From the IMG/VR virus record IMGVR_UViG_2512047041_000006: a stretch of 47,976 nucleotides of DNA; one strand, given 5' to 3'. Below, piece by piece: positions 1,422-39,347 of this stretch (position 1 is the first letter of the stretch; every line of letters begins with the position of its first letter). A model generated the notes under the pieces. That model made no database searches and had not been told where the DNA came from. It saw only the letters and a program-made list of their open reading frames with translations. Both the position numbers and the translations under genes were made by a program. The stretch is from a virus. Taxonomy: Duplodnaviria > Heunggongvirae > Uroviricota > Caudoviricetes.

Positions 1422-2876
1422 TTAAAAATCAGCCTGACTTGGGATCAGTTTTTGCCAGATAACTGAAACGTATTTTGCCTGGTAACGGGCGTCATCAAGT
1501 GCATTATGGCGCTCACCTTCGAATGGAATAGCCGTTCTGGCATCGAAGTCTATGGCTTTCCCCAGCTCAACGATTGTGCGTACATCGCGATCGTTGTAGT
1601 AACGCCACGGGCAGGGGATCCCCTGCCGTTCGTATGAACGGCGCAAAATCGTGTTGTCGAAGTTGGCTCCATTTCCCCAAACCTGAACAAAAAATTCACC
1701 GGAGTTTTCGTCGATAAATTCCCGCAATTGTAACAGTGCATCATCTAACGGGATTTCATCGGTCATAATGGCAGATTGCGCTTCGCGTGATTGCTTAAGC
1801 CACCATTTAATGGTGTCCCGATCAATGACTCCGCCAGCAGTTTCCAGATCGATAGTCTTACTAAATTCCGGTCCCATATCTCCGGTTTGCGGATCGAAAA
1901 ATATTGCACCTATTGAGATGATCGGGGCATCAGGATTTTTTCCCATGGTTTCAAGGTCGATCATTAGATGGTCACACGTCCTGCTGGTGGATGTGATTTC
2001 GTGATGACCGTTCACCTTAATTGAGCGATCTGCCGTCTCGCCAGTTTCATTATCGCTATCGTGATGCTGATTGCCGCCAGTGTTCTCCTTGTGTGGATGT
2101 TCAGCGCCTTCCATTTCCTCCGGATCATCTTCCTGAACTTCAACCTGATACTCTTCATCGAATGTTTCCTGGTATGTTGCGTCGCCCATCACCGCGCCAC
2201 AATCAGGGCAGTTGCCGCCGCCGGTCTGACCGCAGGCGGTGCAGACTTTTTCCACTTCCTGTTGCGCCACTGGTTCAGGCTGTTTCGTTTCTGGCTCGTT
2301 TTGTAACGCATTTGGGCTGTTTTGTTCCGCTTTTTGGTAGTTCCGTTCCGATTCATGCTGATTCTGGTTCACAGAATCGCGGGTCTGGATCCCCTTAACC
2401 CATTTCGGATCATTCGGGTCACTAATCCCTTCAACAAATTCACCACGTGATGCAGCAAGCAACTTATCGGCGTCAGGCTGGCTGATATTGGCTGCCTGCA
2501 TAATTTTGTTTACTTCGTCAGCGGTAACTTTTATCGGCTCTGGTTGTTCTGAATCTTCAGCGGTATCTACATTTTGCGGTAAGCCCGTGTATGTGCCATT
2601 TTTTCGGGCAAAATATTCTTCTTTTGTGATTTCAGTGGCGCCAGCAGCCAGTGCCTTATCCAGACCAGAAAGTTTGTTTGCGCGACCGCATTTTTCTCCG
2701 TCCTTATCTGCGAAGAGGAAATAGAACGGCCCCTCACGCTCTACAGATGGTTCAGCTTCCGGCGCGGTTTCATTTTTTGGGATATCAGATACCTCAGTTT
2801 CCACTGCATCAGTTTGTGTTTCTGATGACTGGAGAACATCAACAGTGCCCAGGTCTGTTTCTTCATTCTCAAACAC
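1422..2876 (-). CDS. DEDDh (DnaQ-like) 3'-5' exonuclease domain protein with zinc ribbon
   Basis: 484 aa; C-terminal motifs MIDLETMG / WGNGANFD / [10 protein letters not shown] typical of DEDDh exonucleases; CTACGQ...CPDCG zinc-ribbon-like motif; acidic low-complexity N-terminal half. Confidence 0.7.
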
Positions 2877-3894
2877 GCCCTTTGTCGTCAGGTATTCGCA
2901 GATATATTTTGTTCAGTGCTATGGGATCTTTGTGAATGTCGATCGGACGCTCACGGACAAGGCCAAAAATAGTTTGGCGGTCGTAGCGAAGGGCATCAGG
3001 CTGTTTGCGCATTGATGCCGAGATACGCTTCCAGTCTTCGCGGTCGTTGTCGATAACTTCATTTTTTGCCCAGCGATGGATGCTGCCGTCAATGTTTCCG
3101 GCATCCACATCACCAGGCCAGAGAGCGTAGGCCAGTTCGTCATCCAGTGTTTTCCATGTCTGCTTGTATTCGCGATGAATGGCAGCAATGACCGGGCTGA
3201 TTTTTCCTGTTGAATTTTCACTGTGCTGTTGATTGGTTCTGGCGCGGGCGAGATCAATAACAGACGTGTATTTTCCGGTTTCCTTACGTTCACCTTCGCG
3301 ACGTTTTTTCCAGATGCGCATCTCTGCCTGAATTTCGGGCCATTTGGCACCAGGCTTACATTTATGCTTAACCCACCCGATGGCATGCAGCTTAAGCTCC
3401 GGATACATGGCGTTAACTTCTGGCATTTTCATCAACGCTTCAACGATATGTCCGTCGAATGTTGCCATGTCTTCCTGCAACAATTCCTGTGCGCTAATAA
3501 CCATATCAACGGTGATGTTTTCACATGTGTCGAACTTAACCATGACAGCGTTCTGTACTTCAGGGGCCAGCTTGTCAAAAGTGACGTTCATCGGATCGGA
3601 TTCAGTCTCAACCGGGACAAAGGAAGCAGACTCCTCATCCCAGCGGTTTTCCTGCATATATTCAGCATCCCAGGAATCGAGGGCAGGGCGGGGTATGCCG
3701 GGTTTATCCTCACAGACAATAAATTTATAAGCGCAGTCCTGAGCTGCAGGGAATTGCTCCAGAAATTGCCAATGAAATTTTGCGCGTGCGCGACGCTCAT
3801 CACCAGCTTCAATGGCAGTGGCCACCGCAACAGCGCTATCTTCTTTTATGGCCTGTTCATCAGGAATAGCAGCGCAAATAAAGACCTTACTCAT
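2869..3894 (-). CDS. Hypothetical early-left operon protein
   Basis: 341-aa ORF, translationally coupled (8-nt overlap) to the exonuclease gene; no family recognised. Confidence 0.5.
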
Positions 3895-12914: not shown

Positions 12915-13280
12915 ATGACTGAACGCATAGAATTTGTTTTGCCTTACCCGCCAACGGTGAACACTTACTGGCGACGTCGTGGCAGCACATATTTTGTATC
13001 AAAAGTCGGTGAGCGTTATCGCCGTGATGTGGCGCTTATTGTTCGCCAGCAGCAACTGAAATTAAACCTGTCCGGAAGGCCGGCAATAGAAATTATTGCA
13101 GAGCCACCGGATAAGCGCCGTCGTGACCTGGACAATATCCTGAAGGCACCACTGGATGTACTGACGCATGCGGGGCTGCTCATAGACGACGAGCAGTTTG
13201 ATGAAATTAATATTGTGCGCGGTCAGCTTGTTCCTGGTGGGCGGTTGGGGATAAAAATCACAGAACTGGAGTACGCATGA
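12915..13280 (+). CDS. rusA: Holliday junction resolvase RusA
   Basis: 121 aa; characteristic RusA sequence (YPPTVNTYW...RRDLDNILKAPLDVLTHAGL..DDEQ). Confidence 0.85.
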   Translation: MTERIEFVLPYPPTVNTYWRRRGSTYFVSKVGERYRRDVALIVRQQQLKLNLSGRPAIEIIAEPPDKRRRDLDNILKAPLDVLTHAGLLIDDEQFDEINIVRGQLVPGGRLGIKITELEYA

Positions 13281-13966
13281 ATAACCAGTATTTACAGTTT
13301 GTTCGTGAGCAACTCATGATTGCCACCGCCGATTTGAGTGGATCAACAAAAGGGCAGCTTGAGGCCTGGCAGGAGAATGCCATGTTTGATACAGGGCGTT
13401 ACAGGCGTAAAAAAATCCGGTACCGCGATGAAGTGACTGGAAAAATGATAACGCGGGATAATCCACCAATCCCGGGAAAGCAATCGCTGGCGAAGGGGGT
13501 GTCAATTCCTCTCGTCAGTCCGGTTGAGTTTTCGACATCATCGTGGCGGCGGGCTGTTCTGTCTCTTGAAGAACATCATAAAGCCTGGTTGTTGTGGTGT
13601 TACAGCGGGAGTATTTGTTGGGAATATCAGATCGCGATAACGCAGTGGGTGTGGAATGAATTTAAAACCCGGTACGGCACCAGAAAAATTGCAGGGAAAA
13701 CGCAGGAGCGCGTGAAGAAGTTGATCTGGCTGGCGGCACAGGATGTCAGAGGATGGATTACCGGGTGTGAGGTCTACCAGAGACAGGAGCTTGCCAGACT
13801 GTGTGGAGTTAAGCCTGATAACTGGAGCCATAATTATGCGAACTACTGGCGTGAGATGTGCGATATTTTTAAGAGTCTCGATAGAGAATCTGTGATTTGC
13901 ACCGTGAAAATAAGAGCGCAACAAAAAGCGACTTTTTCACGACGAGATATTGCAAAAGTCAATTAA
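13277..13966 (+). CDS. Late-gene antitermination protein Q-like
   Basis: 229-aa ORF directly after rusA and directly before a strong bidirectional terminator hairpin (tR'-like); assignment mainly positional. Confidence 0.55.
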   Translation: MNNQYLQFVREQLMIATADLSGSTKGQLEAWQENAMFDTGRYRRKKIRYRDEVTGKMITRDNPPIPGKQSLAKGVSIPLVSPVEFSTSSWRRAVLSLEEHHKAWLLWCYSGSICWEYQIAITQWVWNEFKTRYGTRKIAGKTQERVKKLIWLAAQDVRGWITGCEVYQRQELARLCGVKPDNWSHNYANYWREMCDIFKSLDRESVICTVKIRAQQKATFSRRDIAKVN

Positions 13967-14027
13967 ATAGCGTACGTTTCGTATAAATCTGATATTTTGC
14001 CGATTTTGTACGCGATGGCAAAGTAAG

Positions 14028-14057
14028 AAAAAAAACTGCCGTCAGGCGGTTTTTTTT
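14028..14057 (+). terminator. tR'-like intrinsic terminator downstream of Q
   Basis: A8-CTGCC-GTCA-GGCGG-T8 hairpin flanked by A and T tracts (bidirectional). Confidence 0.65.
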
Positions 14058-14179
14058 ATGCCCAAAATCGCGTCAGTACAGTAAACACGCTGGTGGTTGC
14101 GAATACGGGTCTTTCAGCTTGCTGGCTTTTTCGACAAGAGTTATTGGTATGTCACGTTAACCGGAAAAAGGAAAAAGAC

Positions 14180-14377
14180 ATGCTAAAACAGCAGGATATG
14201 ACAGAAACCGCCAGAGTGGTGTTTAATGAATTAAGCGTTACCGAACCGGCGACAGTCGGGGAGATAGCGCAGAATACTTACCTTTCACGCGAACGCTGCC
14301 AGTTAATACTGACCCAGCTGGTTATGGCGGGTCTGGCAGACTATCAGTTCGGTTGTTACAGACGCCTTCAGTCCTGA
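14180..14377 (+). CDS. Small winged-helix DNA-binding protein
   Basis: 65-aa product from ATG 14180; ORF track extends it to 14093 from a GTG. Confidence 0.45.
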   Translation: MLKQQDMTETARVVFNELSVTEPATVGEIAQNTYLSRERCQLILTQLVMAGLADYQFGCYRRLQS

Positions 14378-14387
14378 AGGCTTTTTT
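14364..14387 (+). terminator. Rho-independent terminator
   Basis: GCCTTCA-GTCC-TGAAGGC hairpin followed by TTTTTT; overlaps stop of wHTH gene. Confidence 0.55.
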
Positions 14388-14403
14388 ATTTGTGGTAAAT
14401 GGG

Positions 14404-14434
14404 CGGCTGGTGGGTGTTAGGGGCACCCACCAGC
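14404..14434. promoter_or_regulatory. Perfect 12-bp-arm inverted repeat (candidate operator) upstream of methyltransferase
   Basis: GGCTGGTGGGTG-N7-CACCCACCAGCC; each arm carries the Chi octamer GCTGGTGG, one per strand. Confidence 0.4.
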
Positions 14435-14527
14435 CATCTGCTCATGCGTTGGGTTCACAAGCAAACCTCAGGCCCACTGCTTTGCGCAAAAGCAGAATGA
14501 GCCTATCAGAGACAGGCTTAATGATCC

Positions 14528-15577
14528 ATGCTTAATACTGTAAAAATATCCAGTTGTGAGTTAATCAACGCCGACTGCCTGGAATTTATCCGGTCGTTAC
14601 CCGAAAATTCTGTTGACCTGATAGTCACGGACCCGCCGTACTTTAAAGTGAAGCCTGAGGGCTGGGATAACCAGTGGAAGGGCGACGATGATTACCTGAA
14701 GTGGCTGGACCAGTGTCTGGCGCAGTTCTGGCGGGTGCTGAAACCTGTCGGAAGTCTTTACCTGTTCTGTGGTCATCGCCTGGCATCTGATATCGAAATC
14801 ATGATGCGTGAACGCTTCAGTGTGCTGAACCATATTATCTGGGCGAAGCCGTCCGGACGCTGGAACGGATGCAACAAGGAAAGCCTGCGGGCGTATTTCC
14901 CCGCCACAGAGCGCATTCTGTTCGCGGAACATTATCAGGGGCCGTATCGTCCGAAAGATGCCGGGTATGCGGCGAAGGGCAGTGCACTGAAACAGCATGT
15001 GATGGCCCCGCTGATTTCTTACTTTCGTGATGCGCGCGCTGCCCTGGGGATAACGGCAAAACAGATTGCAGATGCCACAGGAAAGAAAAACATGGTGTCG
15101 CACTGGTTCAGTGCCAGTCAGTGGCAGCTACCGAACGAAAGCGATTATCTGAAATTACAGTCGCTGTTTGCCCGGGTGGCAGAAGAGAAACATCAGCGCG
15201 GTGAACTGGAAAAGCCCCACCACCAGCTGGTGGATACGTATACGTCACTGAACCGGCAGTATGTGGAGCTGCAGAGTGAATATAAGCATCTGCGGCGGTA
15301 TTTTGGTGTGACGGCGCAGGTGCCGTACACGGATGTGTGGACACATAAACCGGTGCAGTTCTATCCCGGGAAACATCCGTGCGAAAAACCGGCAGAAATG
15401 CTGCAGCAGATAATCAGCGCAAGCAGTCGTCCGGGTGACCTGGTTGCAGATTTTTTTATGGGCTCAGGTTCAACGGTAAAAGCGGCACTGGCGCTTGGGC
15501 GTCGTGCGATTGGCGTTGAACTGGAGACCGGACGTTTTGAGCAGACAGTCAGGGAAGTTCAGGATTTAATCGTTTGA
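14528..15577 (+). CDS. DNA methyltransferase, N6-adenine/N4-cytosine (beta-class), orphan
   Basis: 349 aa; catalytic DPPY motif near N-terminus (LIVTDPPYF) and AdoMet motif FFMGSGST near C-terminus; no adjacent restriction endonuclease gene. Confidence 0.85.
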   Translation: MLNTVKISSCELINADCLEFIRSLPENSVDLIVTDPPYFKVKPEGWDNQWKGDDDYLKWLDQCLAQFWRVLKPVGSLYLFCGHRLASDIEIMMRERFSVLNHIIWAKPSGRWNGCNKESLRAYFPATERILFAEHYQGPYRPKDAGYAAKGSALKQHVMAPLISYFRDARAALGITAKQIADATGKKNMVSHWFSASQWQLPNESDYLKLQSLFARVAEEKHQRGELEKPHHQLVDTYTSLNRQYVELQSEYKHLRRYFGVTAQVPYTDVWTHKPVQFYPGKHPCEKPAEMLQQIISASSRPGDLVADFFMGSGSTVKAALALGRRAIGVELETGRFEQTVREVQDLIV

Positions 15578-15626: not shown

Positions 15627-15702
15627 GGCCCTTTAGCTCAGTGGTGAGAGCGAGCGACTCATAATCGCCAGGTCGCTGGTTCAAATCCAGCAAGGGCCAC
15701 CA
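15627..15702 (+). tRNA. ileZ: tRNA-Ile2 (anticodon CAT, lysidine type; ileX/ileZ-like)
   Basis: 76 nt with encoded CCA; full cloverleaf fits; near-identical to E. coli ileX as recalled. Confidence 0.85.
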
Positions 15703-15709
15703 TCACATA

Positions 15710-15786
15710 CCGCCATTAGCTCATCAGGAAAGAGCGCCAGCTTTCGAAGCTGGTTGCGCGGAGTTCGGGTCCCCGAAGGCGGTCCA
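15710..15786 (+). tRNA. tRNA-Arg-like (anticodon TCG), atypical
   Basis: 77 nt cloverleaf with encoded CCA, anticodon loop TTTCGAA; one acceptor-stem and one T-stem mismatch, T-loop TTCGGGT, discriminator T - possibly degenerate. Confidence 0.5.
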
Positions 15787-15799
15787 TTATCTGTATCCT

Positions 15800-15876
15800 G
15801 CGTTGTTAGCTCAGCCGGACAGAGCAATTGCCTTCTAAGCAATCGGTCACTGGTTCGAATCCAGTACAACGCGCCA
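15800..15876 (+). tRNA. tRNA-Arg (anticodon TCT, argU-like)
   Basis: 77 nt; canonical cloverleaf, T-loop TTCGAAT, anticodon loop CTTCTAA, encoded CCA. Confidence 0.85.
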
Positions 15877-15920: not shown

Positions 15921-16133
15921 CTCACAATTCAGGCGGTTGACTGTTGTCTGGTTTGCGGGGAGTTTGTTAAAAGAAACTGGCATGGTGAATCCCCCTGTGC
16001 GGAGGGGCAATCAGCGAGTAGGTATATGGGATAATCGCGGATTCAGGTGCTGGTACTGAATTCACCGGGAGGCACCCGGCACCATGCAATGGCACATAGC
16101 GCCACTCTCCAGCCCCTCTCCGGAGGGGCTTTT
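15921..16133 (+). repeat. Noncoding repeat module, copy A
   Basis: Shares ordered conserved blocks with copy B: CTCACAATTCAG, GTTGAC, TTGTTAAAA, GCATGGTGAATCCCCCTG-GCGGAGGGGC, TCACCGGGAGGCACCCGGCACCATG, AGCCCCTCTCCGGAGGGGCTTT. Confidence 0.6.
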
Positions 16134-16388
16134 CTGTGCCGGATACATCACAGTTTCTGGAACCTTAGGTACTACAGTATCAGTCAGGGTGCTATATTTT
16201 CAGATGTGATGAAAGCCTGTCAGCAGGCAGGGCGTATCGGAAATGACCCAGTAGAGAAAACGTTGACTCAGATACCGGTGCTGAGTTACCGGGAAACCGG
16301 CATCACATGACCGCTATCCTTCCAGGCCCATCCGCTCCGGTGGGCCTTTTTACTGCAGAAAACAGGTTCCCCGTTAAATGCTATGTTG

Positions 16389-16620
16389 CTCACAATTCAG
16401 TAAGTTGACAGTTGCCTGTCAGACTGGGCATTTGTTAAAAAAATTTCGCATGGTGAATCCCCCTGAGCGGAGGGGCGACTGGTGACGGTATAATCTCTGA
16501 TTATCAAAACGAGAATGACGCGGGTTTAGTGGCACCGGGCTGAACTCACCGGGAGGCACCCGGCACCATGTGCATGATGATACAGATACGCGGCTTTAGC
16601 CCCTCTCCGGAGGGGCTTTC
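16389..16620 (+). repeat. Noncoding repeat module, copy B
   Basis: Second copy 468 bp downstream of copy A; contains a perfect TATAAT (in GGTATAATCTCT) and the same three GC-rich hairpins. Confidence 0.6.
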
Positions 16621-16850
16621 TTATGGACAAAAAAAGCCCGCGCTGGGAGACGCGGGCGGCAAGGAATAAACAATAAAACGTGAAGTAATATTTCAGCTGG
16701 CGAATAATACCCCATAGTAATCACTCTGCGCAACTGCGCGGTCTTTTTCGAATTGCGGGCTGTAGTCTCCCTTCTGCCATTGTCCTGTAACTTCCGGACT
16801 TCAGCCTGCTCCTTATCTGACTCACAACATTATCCCGCCCGGGAGGATTC

Positions 16851-19762: not shown

Positions 19763-20296
19763 ATGAACGCAAAAATCAGATACGGCCTGTCGGCTGCCGT
19801 TCTGGCGCTGATTGCCGCTGGTGCGCCTGCGCCTGACATTCTCGACCAGTTTCTGGATGAAAAGGAAGGTAACCACACCACGGCATACCGTGATGGTGCG
19901 GGTATCTGGACCATCTGCCGCGGTGCCATCCTGGTGGATGGCAAACCTGTCGTTCCGGGCATGAAGTTGTCGAAGGAAAAATGCGACCGGGTTAACGCCA
20001 TTGAGCGTGATAAGGCGCTGGCATGGGTGGAGAAAAACATCAGAGTGCCATTGAGTGAACCCCAGAAAGCGGGGATCGCGTCATTCTGTCCGTACAACAT
20101 TGGTCCCGGTAAGTGTTTCCCGTCGACGTTTTATAAACGAATTAATGCAGGTGATCGCAGGGGAGCGTGTGAGGCGATTCGCTGGTGGATTAAGGACGGT
20201 GGCAGAGACTGCCGTATTCGTTCAAACAACTGCTACGGTCAGGTATCCCGTCGTGACCAGGAGAGCGCGCTGGCGTGCTGGGGAATCGACAGATAA
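19763..20296 (+). CDS. R: SAR endolysin (GH24 phage lysozyme, R21-like)
   Basis: 177 aa; weakly hydrophobic Gly/Ala-rich N-terminal signal-anchor-release segment; catalytic E-x8-D-x5-T triad (DEKEGNHTTAYRDGAGIWT). Confidence 0.85.
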   Translation: MNAKIRYGLSAAVLALIAAGAPAPDILDQFLDEKEGNHTTAYRDGAGIWTICRGAILVDGKPVVPGMKLSKEKCDRVNAIERDKALAWVEKNIRVPLSEPQKAGIASFCPYNIGPGKCFPSTFYKRINAGDRRGACEAIRWWIKDGGRDCRIRSNNCYGQVSRRDQESALACWGIDR

Positions 20297-39142: not shown

Positions 39143-39347
39143 AATGTGAAGATATTCAGAATTTTTATGCCATTACCGGTTTTAACCAACAGGATTATCG
39201 GTGGGCATGAAAGAAAACCCCGGTATCTGCTGATACCGGGGTTTCTCTTTAGCATGGCAGAAATGTGTTTCATGCTTTTCGGGCGAAGGATATCCGACTT
39301 CTGTACGGAATGGCAAGTGGCGGTTAATTTATTCAGGGGAAGGCTGT

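Follow-up and report, generated by a model that had tools for sequence, protein, structure and literature searches.

An M.EcoGII-type methylase gene with a probable structured regulatory leader in the late operon of a lambdoid prophage

We analysed a 47,976-nucleotide (nt) stretch of a lambdoid prophage (IMG/VR record IMGVR_UViG_2512047041_000006; hereafter the window, in which positions count from the first letter), where a small gene, a perfect inverted repeat and a DNA methylase gene follow one another behind the late antiterminator gene Q. The best explanation of this segment, with a probability of about 0.7, is a late-operon cargo unit of the M.EcoGII type whose methylase gene is preceded by a structured regulatory leader. 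Comparative data indicate that the inverted repeat forms, in sense-strand RNA, the upper stem of a stem-loop, designated SL1, that has been kept by compensatory change. The features that make up this unit are as follows.

14180..14377, plus strand: gene for a 65-amino acid (aa) predicted winged-helix protein (ATG at 14180, TGA at 14377; phrog_331)
14364..14391, plus strand: intrinsic terminator spanning the stop codon of the small gene (terminator scan; stem at 14364-14381, then TTTTTTATTT)
14384..14536, plus strand: putative structured leader of the methylase mRNA (bounds from covariance model R1, 132.6 bits)
14399..14445, plus strand: stem-loop SL1, including the inverted repeat (lower stem AUGGGC/GCUCAU plus the 12-bp arms, loop UUAGGGG; free energy, dG, -31.5 kcal/mol)
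14452..14462, plus strand: 5' strand of a long-range helix (GGUUCA.AAGC), with 14516-14527 as its partner
14470..14504, plus strand: stem-loop SL2, AGGC..CUGCUUU-GCGCA-AAAGCAG..GCCU (RNAalifold)
14516..14527, plus strand: 3' strand of the long-range helix, which stops one base short of the AUG and contains a conserved GATC and no Shine-Dalgarno sequence
14528..15577, plus strand: orphan beta-class N6-adenine DNA methyltransferase assigned to the M.EcoGII family (349 aa; PF01555, E=2.7e-44)

The inverted repeat has the form GGCTGGTGGGTG-N7-CACCCACCAGCC, with 12-bp arms at 14405-14416 and 14424-14435 that are 100% complementary. An original prediction, made from the letters of the window, had described a perfect palindrome downstream of a helix-turn-helix (HTH) gene; the repeat is indeed perfect and lies at 14405-14435, after the stop codon at 14377, the coordinates then given for it being one base too low. 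Perfect 12-bp repeats with loops of 3-10 nt occur twice in the window versus 0.05 expected from first-order Markov simulations. The other one, at 39215-39245 (AAAACCCCGGTATC-TGCT-GATACCGGGGTTTC, flanked by runs of A and T), is an ordinary bidirectional terminator.

Related loci were collected by a scan of one genome per species, which yielded 80 loci with methylases 62-100% identical, 78 of them with upstream sequence, from Escherichia, Salmonella, Klebsiella, Citrobacter, Enterobacter, Erwinia, Providencia, Morganella, Xenorhabdus, Photorhabdus and other genera. A scan of viral contigs with the methylase alignment returned only relatives with 94-100% identity and served for allele counts, not for diversity.

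A stable hairpin was present at the same place in more than 60 distinct sequences with differing stems. The stem reads GGCUGGUGGGUG/CACCC(R)ACCAGCC in Enterobacteriaceae, mostly with a one-base bulge, GACUGUAAAGGUG/CACCCUUACAGUC in Providencia, and GGCGGGUA/UACCUGCC, GCCGG/CCGGC or CACUGGC/GCCAGUG in Xenorhabdus. In each of Enterobacteriaceae, Providencia/Morganella and Xenorhabdus/Photorhabdus, compensatory and G-U changes maintain the SL1 pairing. When 25 sequences from Xenorhabdus and Photorhabdus were aligned, 92% of cells were paired versus 41-54% in slid controls, and 8 of 14 pairs had changed on both sides. Among seven aligned phages the left arm is invariant, and the C-to-T and A-to-G changes of the right arm pair solely as sense-strand G-U. 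Over all helices, non-Watson-Crick pairs comprised 131 G-U versus 21 A-C, a bias that indicates a structure of sense-strand RNA rather than of duplex DNA or the antisense strand. The perfect 12-bp version is a common allele (39 loci) and is about equalled by an allele with one G-U pair (32 loci).

The original prediction had likened this arrangement to a controller-protein/operator/methylase unit, in which the small protein would be a C-protein-like repressor or activator and the palindrome a DNA operator that times methylase transcription. The helix-turn-helix fold, the perfect dyad in the window and the gene order fit such a model, and C-protein/C-box restriction-modification systems likewise have a small HTH gene beside a methylase gene with a dyad nearby. 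C proteins, however, are of the Xre type, have operators upstream of their own gene and control an endonuclease, whereas the window unit has another fold (no HTH_3 match), a downstream dyad that behaves as RNA structure, and no endonuclease. The stem, moreover, differs from genus to genus through compensatory and G-U changes, and yet helix 3 of the protein, the putative recognition helix, stays constant. In the commonest relatives a 1-nt bulge or a G-T pair makes the palindrome imperfect as DNA; the hairpin persists without the protein gene, and in three Xenorhabdus loci the gene persists with the upper stem lost. A consensus scan gave no promoter-like site between the small gene and the methylase gene. 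We therefore abandoned the analogy and regard a DNA operator of this kind as very improbable.

Conservation in the leader is not confined to SL1. In Enterobacteriaceae, Providencia and Morganella, conservation over the ~130 nt that run from AAAUGGGCGG to the methylase ATG exceeds that of the flanking genes. In an alignment of 28 leader sequences, the adopted fold (SL1, SL2 and the long-range helix) had 93.6% of cells paired versus 28-42% in slid controls, and nine pairs showed compensatory double changes, three of them in the long-range helix. The long-range helix was paired in 94% of alignment cells, the window copy having one U-U mismatch, and SL2 in 91-93%, with AGGC/GCCU changing to AAGC/GCUU in Providencia. 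A covariance model, R1, built from this alignment and searched in the fetched loci gave one match per locus, always on the plus strand and directly 5' of the methylase ATG; in the window it matched only 14384-14536. Rfam contained no plus-strand match to 14384-14536 at E<=1, and on the minus strand gave just a chance-level match to P26 (24 bits versus a gathering score of 36). The methylase ATG has no Shine-Dalgarno sequence upstream of it. As a separate observation, the locus of Trabulsiella odontotermitis contains a weak partial second match to the leader (positions 2020-2112 of that locus; 30 bits, E ~4e-4) about 800 nt upstream of the main copy.

Of the 16 loci without the small gene, 14 have an intact leader and hairpin; the leader therefore goes with the methylase and not with the small gene. 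The only leader sequence common to all clades is GUGRAAAUG, directly 5' of the hairpin.

Two other readings of the leader were rejected. A leader peptide or coupled open reading frame (ORF) starting at the conserved ATG at 14399 varies in length and frame (7, 13, 18, 33 or 43 codons), and an ATGA overlap with the methylase start is found in only three loci. An alternative fold, in which UGGGC at 14400-14404 pairs with GCCCA at 14472-14476 alongside a GUGAGC/GCUUAC helix, had 89% of cells paired, below the 93.6% of the adopted fold. One compensatory change in Mixta still fits the distal UGGGC/GCCCA pairing, so that the leader might switch between the two folds. Two observations concern the GATC tetranucleotide in this region: a Dam site at 14523-14526, just before the methylase ATG, is nearly invariant in relatives, and a second (GATCAC) lies in the 5' strand of the long-range helix of many of them. 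Transcription of Mu mom is Dam-dependent.

SL1 might instead be a second transcription barrier: acting as a terminator or attenuator, it and the terminator at 14364-14391 would jointly insulate the methylase gene from polymerase unmodified by Q. The hairpin is GC-rich and very stable (dG ~-27 to -31 kcal/mol), and the homologous hairpin of Xenorhabdus and Photorhabdus, with GUGAAA before it and UUUU(C/A) after it, has the form of an intrinsic terminator. A further hairpin of varying sequence, terminator-like with a U-rich tract, always lies just 5' of the leader in relatives, even in those without the small gene. In the window, however, the stem is followed by AUCUGCUCAUG, and in all Enterobacteriaceae by this sequence or AUUCGCUCAUG, with no U-tract in either case; the terminator scan called the hairpins at 14038 and 14364 and not SL1. 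Termination would also leave a further 90 nt of conserved structure unexplained. Whether SL1 is itself a barrier to transcription is thus uncertain, and we consider insulation by SL1 an unlikely account of the leader as a whole.

The methylase encoded downstream of the structured leader matched PF01555 (N6_N4_Mtase) over residues 29-340 (E=2.7e-44). The DPPY motif is N-terminal (residues 35-38) and the FxGxG motif C-terminal (FMGSG, 310-314), which is the order of the beta class, and the closest solved structures are beta-class adenine methylases. No nuclease gene was found in the flanks among the ORFs of the window and their Pfam matches; the neighbours of the gene are Q, the 65-aa gene, tRNAs, small RNA (sRNA) copies and a nanS-p-type esterase gene. 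The predicted beta-class orphan methyltransferase with no restriction partner is thus borne out by the domain match, the motif order and the nuclease-free flanks. The protein is identical to M.EcoGII at 330 of 350 positions over its full length, both being 349 aa; the M.EcoGII reference, obtained by machine reading of the supplement of PMC11551740, contains visible reading errors, so that the resulting ~94% is approximate. A copy in Escherichia albertii is 100% identical.

These comparisons indicate that the window methylase is a close orthologue of M.EcoGII, and hence an orphan of a known and characterized family. M.EcoGII and M.EcoGI of E. coli O104:H4 C227-11 share with it a length of 349 aa, the beta order, orphan status and a prophage location (PMC5778455); the window enzyme, whose activity is predicted from its sequence, differs from M.EcoGII by ~20 substitutions. 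M.EcoGII methylates adenine in any sequence context, is prophage-borne and unexpressed in normal growth or in lysogens, and is deleterious to the cell when expressed constitutively (PMC5778455). The same study reported very similar homologues in phage 1720a-02, which is 95% identical in DNA to the window stretch, and in other enterobacterial phages (PMC5778455); the upstream small gene, the leader and the position behind Q and tR' are not described there. Homologues with 92-93% identity in O111 Shiga toxin-producing E. coli are listed as non-specific, and the lysogens yielded no methylation motif (PMC6602927). Because M.EcoGII lacks sequence specificity and is silent in lysogens, motif calling in a lysogen would probably be blank and would not reveal this enzyme. 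A literature search returned nothing relevant on phage induction or anti-restriction for M.EcoGII homologues.

The original prediction had also placed the unit as late-operon cargo behind tR', and the Pfam match of Q, the terminators and the tRNAs bear this out. The surrounding features are as follows.

13277..13966, plus strand: late antiterminator Q gene, which marks the late operon (PF06323 Phage_antiter_Q, E=1.4e-83; phrog_304)
14028..14060, plus strand: tR'-like intrinsic terminator (A-tract, GC stem at 14038-14050, T-run; terminator scan and inverted-repeat search)
14089..14096, plus strand: Chi octamer directly 3' of tR' (retained in 6 of 7 aligned phages; significance unproven)
15220..15233, strand not assigned: CCACCAGCTGGTGG palindrome within the methylase gene (codons for H-H-Q-L-V)
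15627..15876, plus strand: tRNA trio at the end of the module, Met-CAU (ileZ in phage records), Arg-UCG and Arg-UCU (ARAGORN, Rfam and phage annotations)

The tR'-like terminator lies 72 nt 3' of the Q gene, the spacing expected for tR', and homology to phages with different Q types starts at this terminator. Matches to the stretch between tR' and the tRNAs occur in 287 phage records. The order of Q, terminator, small gene and methylase gene is annotated in SfV (orf47/orf48), phiP27 (L23/L24), mEp460 and many Stx2 phages, and phages that share this order carry unrelated Q genes upstream. Among complete E. coli genomes, 2283 of 5426 carry the segment that consists of the small gene plus leader, at up to 8 copies per genome. 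Taken with the species scan, these matches indicate that the unit is a widespread late-operon cargo of lambdoid prophages that is conserved across Enterobacterales.

The same slot between Q and the lysis genes holds the 'moron' cargo of Stx phages (stx with ileZ-argN-argO), with expression from pR' through Q antitermination and with the same tRNA trio and nanS-p esterase gene downstream. The window prophage differs in having no stx and in carrying copies of the STnc100 sRNA family in that position. Two of these copies are full (15951-16141 and 16419-16628; 165 and 136 bits) and one, at 16180-16353, is degenerate; they follow the tRNA trio and precede the nanS-p-type esterase gene, a position that is exactly the stxAB slot in Stx phages. 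A sub-threshold match to another sRNA, STnc370 (43.8 bits versus a gathering score of 54), covers tR' on the minus strand at 14023-14098 and may merely reflect a bidirectional terminator. The untranslated stretch from tR' to the small gene (14093-14179), together with the Chi at 14089, is nearly invariant across phages with unrelated Q genes, and no promoter-like site was found in it.

Two phages are deletion derivatives that retain only part of the unit. In PhiR5_1 (positions 2001-2040 of the fetched locus) the small gene is kept, and a break directly after the left hairpin arm, with resumption in the STnc100 region, takes out the methylase gene and the tRNAs. In phiSTEC1575-Stx2k (2630-3343) the small gene and part of SL1 are kept and are followed by a truncated methylase gene.

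The 65-aa product of the small gene matched phrog_331 (function unknown) with E=1e-37 and carries the RefSeq name 'TrmB family transcriptional regulator'. Among curated profiles, its best Pfam match, TrmB, scored 18.1 bits versus a cut-off of 25.6 (E=0.0024), MarR and other winged-helix families were also below threshold, and NCBIfam gave nothing significant; a sequence search found no solved structure. We obtained structure models of the protein with AlphaFold2, the best of which had a predicted local distance difference test (pLDDT) score of 88, the other four scoring 54-66, and showed an H1-S1-H2-H3-S2-wing-S3 fold. In Foldseek this model resembled IclR N-terminal DNA-binding domains (TM score ~0.8, root-mean-square deviation 1.4-1.8 Å), and other matches (TM ~0.7-0.8, E ~2e-3) included winged-helix dimerisation domains of O-methyltransferases and RNA-binding winged helices of SelB. 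The models thus predict a winged-helix fold for the protein. The ORF at 14180-14377, the predicted fold and the terminator at 14364-14391 agree with the earlier description of a 65-aa winged HTH protein whose gene has its own terminator. A 94-aa reading of the ORF from a GTG at 14093 was rejected, given a 10-nt frame-breaking deletion within the extension in Stx2a_1447.

A homologue of the small protein, with 38-98% identity, is encoded directly upstream of the methylase gene in 62 of the 78 loci with upstream sequence, its stop codon lying 82-154 nt before the methylase start. In the remaining 16, Q plus a terminator or unrelated cargo occupies this position. Helix 3 of the protein, RCQL(I/L)LTQ, is invariant in all clades. 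The winged-helix protein thus appears to be a frequent but dispensable partner of the methylase.

Some loci depart from the usual form of the small gene. In Kosakonia sacchari (L018, 2534-2794) and in a contig labelled Vagococcus (L021), the place of the winged-helix gene, directly 5' of the same leader and methylase gene, is taken by a gene whose 87-88-aa product contains three CxxC pairs and matches nothing in Pfam. In Erwinia tracheiphila (L050, ~2660-3004) the winged-helix ORF has lost its stop codon, runs through the whole of the leader to give 114 aa, and finally overlaps the methylase start at an ATGA.

A translational role for the small protein is suggested by phage Mu, in which Com binds mom mRNA and activates translation of a harmful adenine-modifying enzyme (PMC3299994, PMC6483171). 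By analogy, the winged-helix protein would bind the leader RNA, at SL1 or at GUGRAAAUG, and open the long-range helix for methylase translation. The position of the small gene, upstream at a fixed distance in 62 of 78 loci down to 38% identity, would suit such a protein, as would a leader that lacks a Shine-Dalgarno sequence and has a helix abutting the AUG; GUGRAAAUG and helix 3 are likewise the invariant elements of leader and protein, respectively. Winged helices can bind RNA hairpins, SelB being among the fold matches. Com homologues are also encoded ahead of Hia5, Hin1523 and Nme1821, which are non-specific adenine methylases, and putative Com sites lie at the 5' end of the methylase gene (PMC3299994, PMC6483171). 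The Mu com-mom and Com-Hia5/Hin1523/Nme1821 units thus resemble the window unit in having a gene for a small nucleic-acid-binding protein, a structured start-codon region and a harmful late anti-restriction enzyme that, like M.EcoGII, modifies adenine without sequence specificity.

The differences from these units are nevertheless substantial. Com, which binds mom mRNA, is a zinc finger, whereas the 65-aa protein is a predicted winged helix with no CxxC...CxxC pattern, and RNA binding by it is purely conjectural; the methylases are only distantly related. The Com gene overlaps the gene downstream of it, whereas the small gene of the window ends 150 nt upstream, behind a terminator. In contrast to Com units, the small gene is dispensable in 16 of 78 loci, 14 of which have an intact leader and methylase gene, and the protein is kept in the three Xenorhabdus loci that have lost the upper stem. 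M.EcoGII, furthermore, has been expressed from plasmids without the small protein, though with the expression signals of the vector (PMC5778455). Activation of translation through the leader by the small protein is therefore a minor possibility, if the most plausible of those set beside the preferred reading. Somewhat more doubtful still is the proposal, also drawn from Mu, that the 65-aa protein would be a new kind of Com-like factor that remodels the start-codon helix and licenses methylase translation only late in lytic growth.

Under the preferred reading, that of an M.EcoGII-type cargo unit with a structured regulatory leader, the methylase gene would be transcribed only in lytic growth, when Q-modified polymerase passes tR' and the second terminator. 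Translation of the harmful enzyme would be kept low or delayed by the structured leader, which may additionally stabilise or process the message. Replicating phage DNA would then be blanket-methylated late in infection, and the methylated DNA would escape restriction in the next host.

Several points weigh against this reading. We infer the regulatory role of the leader from its sequence. Strong conservation of the leader in Enterobacteriaceae limits the covariation that can be seen, the effective sequence number of the covariance model being 1.49, and part of the structure was worked out by hand on the very sequences that also served to test it. The left arm, GGCTGGTGGGTG, is invariant in ~45 species, beyond any purely structural need, and could have a protein-binding or DNA-level role. 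SL1 is terminator-like in Xenorhabdus and not in the lineage of the window, and its function may differ between clades. Reading errors in the M.EcoGII reference also leave the identity on which the family assignment draws an approximate value.

The original prediction had further pointed to Chi octamers in both arms of the repeat and in a second palindrome, CCACCAGCTGGTGG, at 15220-15233. These sites exist: GCTGGTGG occurs on the plus strand at 14089, 14406 and 15226 and on the minus strand at 14427 and 15220, giving five within 1.15 kb, and the whole window contains 14 versus ~2 in shuffles. Selection of Chi in the hairpin and in the methylase gene for RecBCD protection or recombination of phage DNA might account for this density, for the invariance of the plus-strand Chi of the left arm in Enterobacteriaceae, and for the deletion junction of PhiR5_1, which falls exactly after the left arm. 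The density of Chi in E. coli is about one per 4.6 kb, however, which is near 14 per 48 kb, and two of the five sites are simply the opposite strand of a palindrome, leaving three independent occurrences. The minus-strand Chi of the right arm is allele-specific and absent from most alleles, and genera with differing stems keep the hairpin with no Chi there. Within the methylase gene, the synonymous CAT, CAA, TTG and GTC of other species break both the palindrome and Chi at 15220-15233. Clustering of Chi was therefore rejected as a significant signal, and selection for it is highly unlikely; the octamers, although present as described, appear to be incidental by-products of stem sequence and codon choice. 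Chi sites in the window show a strand bias of 10 (plus) to 4 (minus), with clusters at 20181/20583/20630 (plus) and 12490/12542 (minus).

As a locus, the segment is ordinary, being one more copy of the M.EcoGII prophage unit, a family in wide use as a chromatin-footprinting reagent. What the analysis adds is the assignment of the palindrome to a conserved mRNA leader structure, absent from Rfam, before a harmful methylase gene. How prophages hold this methylase off and then switch it on is not described in Rfam or in the literature searched. The gene is placed behind two terminators in a Q-dependent late operon, with a structured leader that lacks a Shine-Dalgarno sequence and, frequently, a winged-helix partner. 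Translational control by the leader or by the partner protein, if real, would explain the missing methylation in lysogen methylomes and would provide a lambdoid counterpart to the com-mom paradigm of Mu. If the small protein does act in the manner of Com, the leader would be a hitherto undescribed RNA switch that responds to a protein and occurs in ~40% of E. coli genomes.

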